NCBI GenBank assembly: GCA_963714145.1
Contig: OY970235.1
Span: 7,571,983-7,635,982 of the forward strand
Source: an uncultured Actinomycetota bacterium
Lineage (GTDB): Bacteria > Actinomycetota > Actinomycetes > Mycobacteriales > CADCTP01
Direction: 5' to 3'
Length of the DNA stretch: 64,000 nt
Shown: one piece after another, positions 2,190-6,295 of the stretch
Numbering within the stretch: position 1 is the stretch's first letter
Layout: each line of letters begins with the position of its first letter
The notes under the pieces: generated by a model
Database searches by the model: none
Told to the model about the DNA's origin: nothing
Seen by the model: the letters and a program-made list of their open reading frames with translations, nothing else
Translations under genes and position numbers: made by a program

Positions 2190-3643
2190 CCCCGCCGAGC
2201 TTCGCTCCTGCCCATGGCCCGCCGCCGGGTGCGCCGCCACCCGGGGTGCCTGGTCGGCCGGGGTTGCTCCCGCAGCCGGCCCTCGGTGGGGTGCCCGGCT
2301 CGCCGGGCCAGCCGCCGGCTCCGACCCCGCCGGCTCTGACCCCGTCGACGGCGGGCGCGTCGTCCGCCAGTCGGTCCGGCCCTCAGGTTCCGAACCCGTC
2401 GGCGACGGGCGCGTCGGCCGCCGGCCGGGCCGGCCCGCAGGCTCCGGCGGTGCCTGCTCCGCGAGTCCCGCCGGCGGTTGGTGCGCCACCAGCGGGTTCC
2501 GGCTCGCCATCGGCGGCCGCGCCGACGCCGTCCGGCGGGCAGCCACCGGGAACGAGGCCTGGTTCTGGCCTGCCACCGGCCGCGCCGACGCCGTCCGGCG
2601 GGCAGCCACCGGGGACGAGGCCCGGTCAGGCGGTTTCCCAAGCACCGGGGCTGCGGCCGGCGCCAGGGTGGGCGCCGGGTGGTCCGCCGGCTACCGGTCC
2701 AGGGCCGGATGGTCGGCCGGCGGCGTTCGGCCCGCCGATGGCCCGGCCGGCAGCGCCGGGGGCGGCGCCGCCAGCAGGGATCCCGGTGCCGCGGGTGGGC
2801 TTACCGCCGGGGGCGACGCCGATACGGCTCGACCCGCCGGGACGGCCAGCGACCACCGGCCCGGTGCCCGGCCCGACCGCCCCCCGGCCTGGCCGGGTCG
2901 GCCCGCCACCGGGCCCGCCGCTCGGTGCCCCGCCGCCAGGCCCGCCGTCCGGTGGCCGGCCGTCCGGCCCGCCGTCTGGTGGCCCGCCGGTAGGCCTGCC
3001 GTCCGGCGGCCTGTCGTCCGGTGGCCCGCGGCCCGGTGGCGCGCCGCCGAGCGGCCCCGGGCCGGCGCAGTCGACCGGGTCACGGCGGTTGGTGCTGATC
3101 GGCGTGGTGGTCCTGGTCACGGTGGCCGCTGTGGTGGGCGGCGTGATCGCGGTCGCCTCCAGTCGCGGCGGCACCCCGGCTCGGCCCAGCGCAACGCTGG
3201 TGGCCAGCAGTCGGACGTCCAGCCCCGCCCCGGCGACCCCGACCCCGACCCAGACGCCGGACACCGAGTTCGATGACGCGTTCACCTCGACCGCGCTACG
3301 TGACTATGTACGGCCCTACTACGACCAGATCACGTCCTGCGAGAAGGCCACCACCGGATCGCTCGCGTCGGTGCAGTGCACGTTCGACAACGACGTCCGG
3401 GTCCAGTTGTTCGAGATCCCGACGAACATCTCGGTCACCGAACTCCGGACCAAGATCTCGCCGCTGCTGGATCATCCGGACAAGCAGGCCTGGGCGCACG
3501 GACAGCTGTGGATCTCGGAGGAGTCGGTCTCGGCGCTGTACTGGGATCAGGTGGATGAGCGGGTCGCCGCGCTGGCCCTGCTGCCGGCCGGCAACTCGGC
3601 GAAGTTGCGGACCTGGTGGCAGACCACGTTCGGGAGTTCGTAG
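1103..3643 (+). CDS. Hsp70-family ATPase-domain protein A: NBD only, then Pro-rich linker, one TM helix and a two-Cys C-terminal domain
   Basis: MRVLAVDFGTSNTAVA (phosphate-1), [14 protein letters not shown] (phosphate-2) and IYLVGGSSRIPLV (adenosine motif). No Hsp70 substrate-binding domain is present. A roughly 330-aa P/G/A-rich region follows, then TM LVLIGVVVLVTVAAVVGGVIAVA, then a C-terminal domain with SCEK...VQCTF. ATG at 1103 follows AAGGGGG. Confidence 0.85.
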   Translation: MRVLAVDFGTSNTAVALGVGGGVPRLVAVDGLPVVPSSVFLGDDGVLAVGRDADRQARLDPSRFEPNPKRRIDEGVLLLGVSSVPVVDVVAAVLGRVAGEVGRQLGGRADQVRLTHPARWGRRRLSTLVTACRQAGLAEEPVLIPEPVAAATHFAAVSGHSLADGATLAVYDLGGGTFDVAVVQKRGAGYQVLAEDGRADLGGLDFDHAILEHVGRTHAAAIDPAAWQALLTPSDPASRRAARALATDIRDAKEALSRHPHVDIALPPPFTDIHLTRTELEDLIRPNLQRSVDLLATTIAQAGFNPHQLAGIYLVGGSSRIPLVGRLIQETLDTTPTTLDQPETSVATGAVYLPITTPSAPTAPPSFAPAHGPPPGAPPPGVPGRPGLLPQPALGGVPGSPGQPPAPTPPALTPSTAGASSASRSGPQVPNPSATGASAAGRAGPQAPAVPAPRVPPAVGAPPAGSGSPSAAAPTPSGGQPPGTRPGSGLPPAAPTPSGGQPPGTRPGQAVSQAPGLRPAPGWAPGGPPATGPGPDGRPAAFGPPMARPAAPGAAPPAGIPVPRVGLPPGATPIRLDPPGRPATTGPVPGPTAPRPGRVGPPPGPPLGAPPPGPPSGGRPSGPPSGGPPVGLPSGGLSSGGPRPGGAPPSGPGPAQSTGSRRLVLIGVVVLVTVAAVVGGVIAVASSRGGTPARPSATLVASSRTSSPAPATPTPTQTPDTEFDDAFTSTALRDYVRPYYDQITSCEKATTGSLASVQCTFDNDVRVQLFEIPTNISVTELRTKISPLLDHPDKQAWAHGQLWISEESVSALYWDQVDERVAALALLPAGNSAKLRTWWQTTFGSS

Positions 3644-3811
3644 CGGCGGACGCCAAGCTGGCACGGAATGGGGAGAGGGAGCCTGGAGCCGGCCGCCGGC
3701 CAGCTACGTCCGACCGGGCGGCGAACATCGAAGTAGCAAGTGGACAGTCGTGGCGGCACCGGCCACGGCGGCCGGTCAGCAACGAGCGACAGCCACTGGA
3801 GGCGGACTGCG

Positions 3812-4898: not shown

Positions 4899-6295
4899 GA
4901 CAGTCCGACCACCAGCCGTCCAGCGACACCGCCGCGGCCTGGCCGGCCGCTCCCGGCACTGACCCGTCGAGCGACGCGGCCGGTTCGGCCTGGCCGCCGG
5001 CCCCCCGGTCGGCCTCGTCGAGTGGCCCCGTCCCCGCGGCCGGCTATTCGCCGCCAGTTGAGTCGGCTTCGGCCTGGCCGGCCGCTCCCGGACAGGCTGG
5101 ATCGAGTGGGGCTACCCCGGACGAGCAGCCGGCCGGGCAGCAGGCGGCGGGTTCGGCCTGGCCTGCCACGCCGGAGCCGGGCCCGACGAGCGGCGCCGTT
5201 CCCGCGGCCGGGTATCCGCCGCCGGGCGACGCGGCTGCCGGCCAGGGTTCGGCCTGGCCGACCGGGCCTGGAGTTGACCCGTCGAGTGGGGGCAGTCCGG
5301 CGGTTGGGTACGTGCCGTCGGGTGAGGTGCCTGGCTGGTCGGGTGCGGCTGGGTCCGGGGTTGACGCGTCGGGTGGTGGTCCGGCGGTCGGGCACCTGCC
5401 GTCGGGTGAGGTGCCTGGTTGGTCGGGTGTGGCCAGGCCCGGGGTCGGCTCGTCGAGTGGTGCCAGCCCGGCAGCGGGGTACCCGCCGCCGGCCGCGAGT
5501 CCGCCGCCCGCGGCCAGCCCGCCTGGTTACGCCCCGCCGGCACAGACCGGTCCGCCGCCGGGTGGCCGGACTCCGCCGGGGACGGATCCGCGAGCGCCCG
5601 GCTACCGTCAGCCGGGCGCGGCCCCGCCGCCGGCCGGATTCGGAGCCGCACCCGGGTACCGACCGCCGGCCGGGAACGTCCCGTACGGCGCGGGCGCCGG
5701 GCAGCCACCAGGCGGCTACCGGCCGCCGGGCGGCCCGCCGCCGAATGCCCAGCCGGGCTGGGCGCCGGGCTACGGGCCGGGCCAGGGGCAGCAGCCCGGG
5801 TACTACCAGGCGCCGCGGCGGTCCCCCCGGCGGGCGGTGTGGATTGGGTCCGGTGTGCTGGGCGCGGTGCTGTTGCTGGTGATCGGGCTGCTGGTCAACG
5901 GCGCCAACACCAAGTACGACAGCTACTTCGGCACCTCCGCGCTGCGCAAGTACGCCCGGCCGTTCTACCCCGACATGACCTCCTGCAAGGCCTCGACGCT
6001 GGCCCAGGTGACCGGGGCGACCTGCACGTTCAAGACCGGCGAGGAAGTCAACCTGGTCGAGTTGAAGGACGGGATCAGCATGGCCACCTGGCGGTCGGCG
6101 CTGGTGCAGGCGATCGGCGCCGACAACGTGGACCAGGGCCGCTGGCGCGGCGGCGAGCTGTGGACGCTCGACGCCGACGGCGACCCGGGGCTCTACTGGG
6201 ACGTCGAGGACGACCGTATCGCCGGCGTGGCGGTCCTCGAGAACGGCACCGACGAGGCCCTGCGCTCCTGGTGGTCGGACCACTTCGGCCGCTGA
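3812..6295 (+). CDS. Hsp70-family ATPase-domain protein B (tandem paralog of A, same architecture)
   Basis: The N-terminal 150 aa are identical to copy A at the nucleotide level. The same Hsp70 NBD motifs are present. The P/G/S/W-rich linker has SAWP and PSGEVPGWSG repeats. TM is AVWIGSGVLGAVLLLVIGLLV. The C-terminal domain aligns with copy A (ALR.Y.RP.Y...SC...CTF...LYWD..D.R.A..A.L..G....LR.WW...FG). ATG at 3812 follows GGAGGCGG. Confidence 0.85.
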   Translation: MRVLAVDFGTSNTAVALGVGGGVPRLVAVDGLPVVPSSVFLGDDGVLAVGRDADRQARLDPSRFEPNPKRRIDEGVLLLGVSSVPVVDVVAAVLGRVAGEVGRQLGGRADQVRLTHPARWGRRRLSTLVTACRQAGLAEEPVLIPEPVAAATHFAAVSGHGLAEGTALAVYDLGGGTFDVAVVQRRGGGYQVLAEAGLDDLGGLDFDHAILDHIGQSPAAQADPVAWQRLLAPSDPASRRAARALATDIRDAKEALSRHPHVDIALPPPFTDIHLTRTELEDLIRPNLQRSVDLLATTIAQAGFNPHQLAGIYLVGGSSRIPLVGRLIQETLDTTPTTLDQPETSVATGAVYLPITTPSAPTGQSDHQPSSDTAAAWPAAPGTDPSSDAAGSAWPPAPRSASSSGPVPAAGYSPPVESASAWPAAPGQAGSSGATPDEQPAGQQAAGSAWPATPEPGPTSGAVPAAGYPPPGDAAAGQGSAWPTGPGVDPSSGGSPAVGYVPSGEVPGWSGAAGSGVDASGGGPAVGHLPSGEVPGWSGVARPGVGSSSGASPAAGYPPPAASPPPAASPPGYAPPAQTGPPPGGRTPPGTDPRAPGYRQPGAAPPPAGFGAAPGYRPPAGNVPYGAGAGQPPGGYRPPGGPPPNAQPGWAPGYGPGQGQQPGYYQAPRRSPRRAVWIGSGVLGAVLLLVIGLLVNGANTKYDSYFGTSALRKYARPFYPDMTSCKASTLAQVTGATCTFKTGEEVNLVELKDGISMATWRSALVQAIGADNVDQGRWRGGELWTLDADGDPGLYWDVEDDRIAGVAVLENGTDEALRSWWSDHFGR

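Follow-up and report, generated by a model that had tools for sequence, protein, structure and literature searches.

What does an Hsp70-type ATPase do when it carries no substrate-binding domain (SBD) and is joined, through a membrane helix, to a domain predicted to lie outside the cell? The question is raised by two adjacent genes, here called copies A and B, on the forward strand of a 64,000-nucleotide (nt) stretch of DNA from an uncultured Actinomycetota bacterium (contig OY970235.1; G+C 70–79%), which we refer to as the window and whose positions are used throughout. Both open reading frames (ORFs) have the architecture that an initial annotation of the sequence had described, namely an Hsp70 nucleotide-binding domain (NBD), a low-complexity spacer, a single transmembrane (TM) helix and a C-terminal domain that aligns between the copies. 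All of these elements were confirmed here, and we regard the feature as real and well supported. Close by lies a conserved cluster of a dynamin-like, a GrpE-like and a second dynamin-like gene, which is the most informative part of the context and which the initial annotation had missed. Our tentative answer, to which we give somewhat less than an even chance, is that the two proteins are membrane-tethered Hsp70-type ATPases within a dynamin-like membrane-remodelling module, with the outer domain docking or sensing at the envelope.

We placed the translation starts at the MRVLAVDFGTSN methionines (nt 1103 and 3812) because Shine–Dalgarno-like purine runs (AAGGGGG and GGAGG) stand upstream and full-length homologues begin at the same residue. 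Each protein has exactly three cysteines, C132 in the NBD and two in the C-terminal domain (C746/C759 in copy A, C725/C738 in copy B). Pfam recognised the Hsp70 NBD alone in both copies (aa ~1–351, E 6e-32 and 1.5e-33); the match in copy A covers aa 88–351, the HSP70 match ends at profile position 369 of 599, and neither Pfam nor NCBIfam matched anything C-terminal to the NBD in either copy. With 111–127 bits in the two databases, the NBDs score far under the equivalog cut-offs for DnaK, HscA and YegD: the best NCBIfam scores are 124–127 bits against DnaK/HscA-type cut-offs of 620–822, and the YegD-type model NF008673 gives 38.5–39.7 bits against a cut-off of 331.

We used the canonical DnaK encoded in the same window (54473–56353) as the reference for aligning the NBDs. 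Conservation extends to the phosphate-1, phosphate-2 and adenosine motifs and to the catalytic Lys and Glu, as seen in DFGTSNT, NPKRRI (the K70 equivalent), PEPVAAA (the E171 equivalent), DLGGGTFD and LVGGSSRIP, and subdomain IB is shortened. In the same alignment the DVLLLD interdomain linker and the whole SBD are missing, and the NBD runs straight into the Pro-rich linker. Judged by its motifs the head is thus an ATPase-competent Hsp70 NBD. On sequence criteria the protein has the actin-fold NBD that defines PF00012 and fails to show the interdomain linker and the β-basket/lid SBD, and by the curated cut-offs it is not a DnaK, HscA, HscC or YegD and belongs with the loosely defined ‘DnaK derivates’. 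The suggestion in the initial annotation that the role is not protein folding agrees with this, in that a protein with neither SBD nor DVLLLD is not a canonical folding chaperone. Elsewhere in the window (54473–61412, + strand) we find a canonical dnaK–grpE–dnaJ–hspR-like–clpB-like heat-shock operon, in which dnaK alone was verified by alignment and the other genes are named by ORF size and order. Both SBD-less paralogues thus coexist with a complete DnaK system in this organism.

Hydropathy shows a single strong hydrophobic helix in each protein, with a mean Kyte–Doolittle value of up to 2.95 in copy A and 2.48 in copy B. Its orientation was assessed by applying the positive-inside rule across the family and by reasoning on the ATP-dependent head. 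Across 41 family members, Lys and Arg in the 15 residues flanking the helix number 125 on the N-terminal side versus 33 on the C-terminal side. The protein has no signal peptide, its first residues being those of the phosphate-1 loop. Given this charge bias, the missing signal peptide and the need of the head for ATP, an N-in/C-out orientation of the single helix is supported, and the two-Cys domain is predicted to lie outside the cell, as the initial annotation had placed it, with the ATPase head in the cytoplasm. Copy A has a predicted extracytoplasmic stalk between helix and domain, and copy B has almost none. In two family loci (L003 and L004) the stalk carries a second Cys pair (DGTCTSDFGKCIGD).

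A scan of species-representative genomes with the NBD alignment gave 28 loci, mostly in soil metagenome-assembled genomes (MAGs) labelled Mycobacteriales, and also in Nakamurella, Longispora, Catenuloplanes, Cumulibacter and Antricoccus. Nine of these carry the same outer domain (L001–L004, L006–L008, L013, L015). Another nine encode tail-anchored proteins that end 0–2 aa past the TM helix, or 8 aa past it in L024 (L009, L011, L016–L019, L022, L024, L026); orthologues without the outer domain include those of Longispora, Cumulibacter, Antricoccus and several Micromonosporaceae MAGs. The Catenuloplanes proteins (L020, L021) continue for ~20 aa past the helix, and the Nakamurella orthologues have a different two-Cys outer domain of ~160 aa. 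The latter was considered as a homologue of the present domain and set aside as suggestive but undemonstrable, the hhalign probability being 21% with an alignment that covers the last β-β-α alone. That many orthologues stop directly behind the TM helix makes the outer domain an accessory. The invariant core of the family is the NBD, a disordered leash and a membrane anchor, and the outer domain is lineage-specific.

The leash is highly variable, and the ‘hypervariable spacers’ of the initial annotation are a justified description. The comparison of linker length among orthologues that it had proposed gave an NBD-to-TM distance of 57–315 aa among the family loci, and both repeat number and residues drift between strains. 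The linkers of the two copies do not align with each other by BLASTP; their composition is 32% Pro, 20% Gly and 15% Ala in copy A and 23% Pro, 19% Gly and 18% Ala in copy B. In copy A, Tandem Repeats Finder (TRF) reports a 54-nt unit at 2326–2446 and PPSGG-type units of 15–54 nt at 2900–3046. A close relative of copy A (P0003/L030; DNA identity 97.9%) differs from it at nine protein positions, all nine of them in the linker, and is identical over the 182 residues of TM helix, stalk and domain. A 97–98% identical strain (L033) has one more copy of the 84-nt repeat of copy B, which adds 29 aa. Its linker departs from that of copy B at eleven more places, through ten substitutions and the loss of one residue, against one change in the NBD and none in the outer domain. 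Between L003 and L004 the ratio of nonsynonymous to synonymous substitution rates (dN/dS) is 0.40 in the linker, and the whole-gene alignment has 48 gap columns, mostly in the linker; just N-terminal of the TM helix these two loci share a conserved segment, GPQITLGPPALAHEL, the rest of the linker being unalignable. Trp motifs are regularly spaced in B-type linkers, for example in the orthologue P0006, which has ten (aa 388–580), mostly S-x-E-W-P, and the copy A linker has a single Trp. Because of this regular spacing, the leash may carry short binding motifs besides acting as a spacer.

The reading we favour takes its direction from the genes downstream (Table 1). Two GTPases with Dynamin_N domains and P-loops flank a GrpE-like gene, one of them (dynamin 2) has a hydrophobic hairpin by hydropathy (aa ~545–598 of the long ORF), and the genes are joined by 4-nt overlaps. 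A bacterial dynamin-like protein (DLP) pair is recognised by two Dynamin_N GTPases of a single operon, of which one or both have a hydrophobic segment that binds membranes, and the present pair fits this description. The hairpin resembles that of membrane-inserting bacterial DLPs. The GrpE-like protein scores 34.4 bits (cut-off 25.8) over profile positions 101–163 of 165 alone, its N-terminal half being of low complexity. The acidic ORF that follows has no Pfam match, and its C-terminal motif (..PW.D..LLG....L.ADL....SDDPA..AL...W) recurs in L002 and L019, again 3′ of dynamin 2. We take this ORF to be a probable fifth member of the cluster.

This arrangement is repeated across the family. In four loci (L006, L009, L011, L028) the NBD gene is followed within 9–73 bp by dynamin 1, the GrpE-like gene and dynamin 2, and in 11 further loci (L001–L003, L008, L014, L016, L017, L019, L020, L022, L024) dynamin genes, often with the GrpE-like gene, lie no more than ~10 kb from the NBD gene. 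Genomes of Nakamurella, Longispora, Catenuloplanes, Cumulibacter and Antricoccus are among those with dynamin-linked loci. The two regulator-like genes that follow copy B in the window are found at the same position in L001–L004, L008 and the P0002 contig, and are absent there in L006, L009, L011 and L028. Flanking housekeeping genes for low-molecular-weight (LMW) phosphatase, TldD and phosphoenolpyruvate carboxykinase (PEPCK) also recur across loci, PEPCK and TldD for example in L009 and L006, and because they do so across genera we suggest vertical chromosomal descent rather than a mobile island. In the window the LMW phosphotyrosine phosphatase gene (241–1041, − strand) is divergent and upstream of copy A. 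It stands at the same place in L001, L002, L005, L006, L012, L023 and L025, and ~3 kb upstream in L003 and L004.

Table 1. Coordinates of the two Hsp70-type genes, their parts and the neighbouring genes in the window
Feature	Position (nt)	Strand	Remarks
Copy A gene	1103..3643	+	846 aa; Hsp70 NBD, linker, TM helix, stalk, outer domain
Copy A NBD	1103..2179	+	aa 1–359; catalytic motifs intact; SBD absent after NBD
Copy A linker	2180..3088	+	Pro/Gly/Ala-rich, low complexity, ~300 aa; internal DNA tandem repeats
Copy A TM helix	3089..3163	+	aa 663–687; RR before; by hydropathy
Copy A stalk	3164..3259	+	Ser/Thr/Pro-rich, ~32 aa; predicted extracytoplasmic
Copy A outer domain	3260..3640	+	aa 720–846; Cys codons 3338–3340 and 3377–3379
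Copy B gene	3812..6295	+	827 aa; architecture of copy A repeated
Copy B NBD	3812..4888	+	compared with copy A: nt 1–452 identical, nt 715–1087 near-identical, nt 453–714 diverged
Copy B linker	4889..5833	+	~315 aa; five SAWPxxP and three PGW Trp motifs; 84-nt tandem repeat
Copy B 84-nt tandem repeat	5295..5462	+	by TRF; two copies, encoding PSGEVPGWSG; three copies in a 97–98% identical strain
Copy B TM helix	5834..5896	+	aa 675–695; PRRSPRR before; by hydropathy
Copy B outer domain	5906..6292	+	aa 699–827; Cys codons 5984–5986 and 6023–6025
Two regulator-like genes	6335..10019	−	200-aa ORF without Pfam match; 1036-aa protein with AAA_16 and LuxR/GerE
Dynamin-like GTPase 1	9775..11319	+	Pfam Dynamin_N 1.3e-12; P-loop GRIKSGKST; no hydrophobic segment
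GrpE-like	11316..11843	+	Pfam GrpE 2.3e-8; probable GTG start 11316 overlaps dynamin 1 stop (GTGA); GGAGG upstream
Dynamin-like GTPase 2	11840..13840	+	Dynamin_N 9.6e-16; probable GTG start 11840 overlaps GrpE-like stop (GTGA)
Acidic ORF	13837..14481	+	Pro/Glu-rich, 214 aa; ATG overlaps dynamin 2 stop (ATGA)

The outer domains, of ~125 aa, are 35% identical between copies A and B over 128 aa (BLASTP E 4e-27). An exhaustive HMMER profile search over 1.84 billion cluster representatives gave 23 matches, from which P0019 and P0024 were removed as false positives (repeat proteins that score by summing weak matches). With ~20 genuine clusters in a set of this size the domain is rare. When one of the outer domains or an 18-sequence profile served as query in word-index homology searches, each search returned only 1–2 matches, and a scan of species-representative genomes with patterns derived from the domain returned nothing, the 18-sequence alignment being too divergent for patterns. 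The full-length members with an identifiable N-terminus have the NBD/linker/TM arrangement (P0006, P0009, P0014, P0018, P0020), with the exception of P0022 and P0023, in which an unrelated, unannotated cytoplasmic N-terminal region is followed by a TM helix and two tandem outer domains; their contigs are too short for informative gene context. In the alignment of 18 members C31, R67, Y-W-D (98–100) and W-W (123–124) are invariant, and C44, W82, G85 and L120 nearly so.

The authors of the initial annotation did not recognise this domain, and neither did our searches. Over all 18 aligned members Pfam gave no family below E 0.02 and none that matched more than two of the 18, and no catalogued extracytoplasmic sensor domain (such as PknH_C, PASTA or Cache) was found in Pfam-A; NCBIfam had no match to the domain, and a sequence-profile search of the PDB had nothing below E 0.49. 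Structure prediction and a Foldseek search, which the initial annotation had proposed, gave a confident fold with no more than weak structural neighbours. The AlphaFold2 models (pLDDT 90.1 and pTM 0.83 for copy A, 92.3 and 0.85 for copy B) have the same order of elements, a helix, three strands, a helix, four strands and a helix (α-β3-α-β4-α). In both, Cys 31 and 44 are directly opposed on the β1–β2 hairpin (strands 28–36 and 39–46), and from this secondary-structure register we predict a cross-strand disulfide. Foldseek against the PDB returned no significant match for either model, none reaching E 1e-3. The recurring neighbours are weak and Mog1/PsbP/DUF1795-like (template-modelling scores 0.41–0.46, E 0.03–0.04, sequence identity 9–13%): CyanoP (2lnj, TMq 0.41, probability 0.91), TM1622 (1vr8, TMq 0.46, probability 0.99), SciW (9mvg_E, TMq 0.42) and PsbP (2vu4 and 1v2b). 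In frame, the G+C content at third codon positions (GC3) of the outer domains is 0.90–0.98. Their protein sequence is unchanged between strains whose linkers differ, and between L003 and L004 dN/dS is 0.43 for the outer domain compared to 0.14 for the NBD, which shows purifying selection on the outer domain, though of a looser kind than on the head. The outer domain is a new, small and rare family.

The heads of the two copies have a history of their own. When the NBD DNA of copy A (1103–2190) is compared to that of copy B (3812–4899), nt 1–452 are identical and nt 715–1087 have 2 mismatches, and between these blocks a patch of 262 nt (nt 453–714) is 77% identical; the upstream regions and all sequence past nt 1087 are unrelated in DNA. 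Identical or near-identical blocks flanking a diverged patch point to mosaic gene conversion of the NBDs. In the unconverted patch copy B has the family-typical state and copy A is derived. At ~0.80, GC3 is lower in the NBDs than in the outer domains or in most other genes of the window (0.90–0.98). Outer domains of the A type (P0001, P0004, P0005) and of the B type (P0002, P0006) both occur in other organisms, suggesting that the duplication is old and that the heads have been kept alike. In L033 (6722–10471 of Ga0307499_10000310) a single gene joins the upstream region and NBD of copy A to the linker and domain of copy B, either through a recombinational deletion between the repeated NBDs or because the short-read assembly collapsed here. 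Independently, another small contig (L030, Ga0307500_10011600) runs from the tail of copy A through the intergenic region into the beginning of a following NBD.

How could these parts work together? We suggest that each gene would give a single-pass membrane protein, N-in/C-out, with the head held on a disordered leash of variable length, and that this tethered NBD would supply the ATPase activity of a conserved membrane module. The co-encoded GrpE-like protein could serve as its dedicated nucleotide-exchange factor, and ATP/ADP cycling of the NBD at the membrane surface may regulate how the dynamin-like pair assembles or disassembles while membranes are remodelled or repaired. For the leash we picture an entropic spacer that possibly also presents short Trp/Pro motifs. 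The outer domain would send no conformational signal through the membrane; rather, by docking or clustering the tether on an envelope component, or by sensing the state of the envelope, it may set the position and density of the heads. Two paralogues that share one gene-converted head and differ in outer domain, stalk and leash could provide two outside specificities. A broader proposal, which we regard as doubtful, is that the cluster encodes an actinobacterial machine, so far uncharacterised, for the remodelling or repair of membranes, in which an SBD-less Hsp70 with its own exchange factor drives or resets the assembly of the dynamin pair, in parallel with the Hsc70-assisted coat cycles of eukaryotes, with some lineages wired to the envelope through the outer domain and the paired paralogues giving one gene-converted head its two specificities outside.

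Several points weigh against the proposal of a tethered ATPase in a dynamin-like module. What would tie the NBD to the dynamin-like and GrpE-like proteins is synteny alone, and in the window and its closest relatives the opposite-strand regulator-like pair separates the NBD genes from the dynamin cluster. The second paralogues of L013 (8862–12103) and L015 (559–3799), both from MAGs, lie far from any dynamin gene. We know of no way in which an SBD-less Hsp70 NBD acts on a client. The predicted topology is drawn from charge bias and logic, and the likeness of the modelled outer domain to the Mog1/PsbP/DUF1795 proteins is weak. As a separate observation, the L013 and L015 second paralogues adjoin a divergent M48 (HtpX-like) peptidase gene and a 2-oxoacid:ferredoxin oxidoreductase gene.

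Other explanations can be set against the same evidence. That the proteins are true transmembrane receptors, in which ligand binding to the outer domain would regulate the ATPase head, perhaps through dimerisation or clustering as in single-pass receptor kinases, seems to us unlikely. The N-in/C-out topology and the folded, conserved outer domain are compatible with it, the invariant Y-W-D and W-W residues and the conserved Arg could form a binding site, and the two paralogues, together with the tandem domains of P0022 and P0023, hint at outer-domain pairing. However, a low-complexity linker of 57–315 aa, whose length and repeat number drift between strains, cannot pass on a conformational signal; the NBD, linker and TM helix, together with the dynamin/GrpE neighbours, are retained in many orthologues that have no outer domain; and the NBD is the sole output domain. 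With so long a leash, and with orthologues that lack the outer domain, conformational transmembrane signalling is unlikely. The ‘transmembrane signalling’ of the initial annotation is weakened accordingly; signalling by clustering may still occur. The intact ATP-hydrolysis motifs, the synteny with dynamins across several actinobacterial families and the translational coupling of the GrpE-like gene within the dynamin cluster, beside the NBD gene, make it improbable that we are dealing with a membrane-anchored DnaK co-chaperone, that is, an SBD-less NBD that pairs with DnaK as Hsp110 does, for exchange or recruitment, next to dynamin genes that are incidental. This coupling suggests that the NBD is the client of an exchange factor and not the exchange factor itself. 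Goloubinoff et al. do propose such a co-chaperone role for NBD-only DnaK derivates (PMC13580251), a canonical dnaK operon is present in the window, and the paralogues of L013 and L015 stand away from dynamins.

We think it very improbable that the locus is a conflict or defence system, be it of the GTPase type of Kaur et al. 2020 or an Eleos/LeoABC-like anti-phage system, with the variable outer domain and linker as a diversifying sensor. Kaur et al. describe HSP70, GrpE and an SBD-less HSP70 in GTPase neighbourhoods of Actinobacteria (PMC7159879, section 29), the linker evolves fast (the outer domain less so), and PADLOC finds dynamin matches to LeoA (26.5 and 64 bits) and LeoBC (61 bits). 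These matches are weak (26–64 bits) and generic, however, and the Hsp70-like proteins fit no defence model convincingly. Among the ORFs from 241 to 20586 Pfam found no GAP1, FNIII, DnaJ or TPR, as far as the Pfam copy used holds them; no effector protein was seen among the scanned neighbours, and the GTPases match Dynamin_N. The housekeeping synteny across genera (PEPCK, TldD, LMW phosphatase) counts against both kinds of defence system. Finally, the two Arg within 10 residues C-terminal of the TM helix in copy A could be taken to mean that the C-terminal domain is cytoplasmic, and one might also ask whether the domain is real at all rather than a chance similarity or the tail of a mis-called ORF. 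Either is scarcely credible in view of the BLASTP match between the copies (E 4e-27), ~20 independent representatives with conserved motifs, a GC3 of 0.90–0.98, two confident AlphaFold2 models, the charge bias of 125 versus 33 and a Cys pair conserved in a Cys-poor protein.

Complex bacteria commonly have SBD-less Hsp70 paralogues, and the present family offers an unusually clear handle on one of these: the membrane tether is a fixed address, the GrpE-like protein a dedicated partner and the dynamin-like link conserved, and there are cultured hosts in Nakamurella, Longispora and Catenuloplanes. Were the link functional, an Hsp70 head that acts without a client-binding domain would gain a first mechanistic role, and bacterial dynamins, about whose control little is understood, would gain an identified regulator. 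The outer domains form a new family of small extracytoplasmic folds that could be used as a module for binding the envelope, and heads in concerted evolution with divergent tails make a case of modular paralogue evolution. What makes the locus interesting is chiefly that it links an orphan Hsp70 head to a private GrpE and to bacterial dynamins in a way that can be tested.

Our literature search found no described protein in which a TM helix and an extracytoplasmic domain follow an Hsp70 NBD, and no description of the outer domain itself; for an actinobacterial dynamin/GrpE/Hsp70 cluster it returned a cyanobacterial note and general reviews, and no such cluster was described. Proteins of the Mog1/PsbP/DUF1795 fold (such as TM1622 and the Eag/SciW chaperones) are non-enzymatic binding modules, several of them extracytoplasmic or lumenal. 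Their α-β-α sandwich is the best recurring Foldseek neighbour of both our models, whereas no sequence-profile link joins them to the present family, to which the predicted disulfide and the YWD/WW motifs are peculiar. Paired bacterial DLPs are known from DynA/DynB, IniA/IniC, Cj-DLP1/2 and LeoABC. As in DLP operons, there are here two DLP genes, one with a membrane-inserting hydrophobic segment, and an Hsp70-family gene linked to a DLP gene; the actinobacterial cluster differs in that its DLP genes enclose a GrpE-like gene and are followed by an acidic ORF. A linkage of a DLP gene to a DnaK-domain gene has been noted once, in a cyanobacterial ‘chaperone clade’, with no follow-up (Jilly et al. 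2018, PMC5827413). The Hsp70 partner here is SBD-less and membrane-anchored.

The DO-GTPase/GAP1-N2 systems with HSP70 and GrpE are defined by their GAP1 and FNIII components (Kaur, Burroughs, Iyer and Aravind 2020, PMC7159879). They share with the present locus the occurrence in Actinobacteria, two paralogous GTPases, HSP70 and GrpE, a place near the membrane and sometimes a second HSP70 without a peptide-binding domain. They differ from it in that GAP1, FNIII-repeat and DnaJ/TPR fusions were not found here, the GTPases match Dynamin_N and the context is housekeeping-like. In E. coli, HscC is recruited to the membrane by the tail-anchored DjlB and DjlC (PMC8215388), which likewise brings an Hsp70-type ATPase to the cytoplasmic membrane face by means of a C-terminal anchor, and many orthologues of the present family are tail-anchored. 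In E. coli, however, it is the J-protein that is anchored and the Hsp70 has an SBD, whereas here the ATPase itself is anchored, with no SBD and no J-protein nearby.

The closest relatives in kind are the NBD-only DnaK derivates, which are recognised as a group; what they do is, according to a 2026 review, an open question (PMC13580251). Like E. coli YegD and the many derivates of Myxococcus described there, the present proteins have an NBD with phosphate-binding and catalytic motifs, neither DVLLLD nor SBD, and an extra C-terminal addition, which among the derivates may be structured or unstructured, and they coexist with a canonical DnaK system. They differ from them in what has been added, here a Pro-rich leash, a TM helix and, in this lineage, an extracytoplasmic domain, in a score for the YegD model of 39.7 bits against its cut-off of 331, and in the tie of the gene to a GrpE-like gene and a dynamin-like pair.

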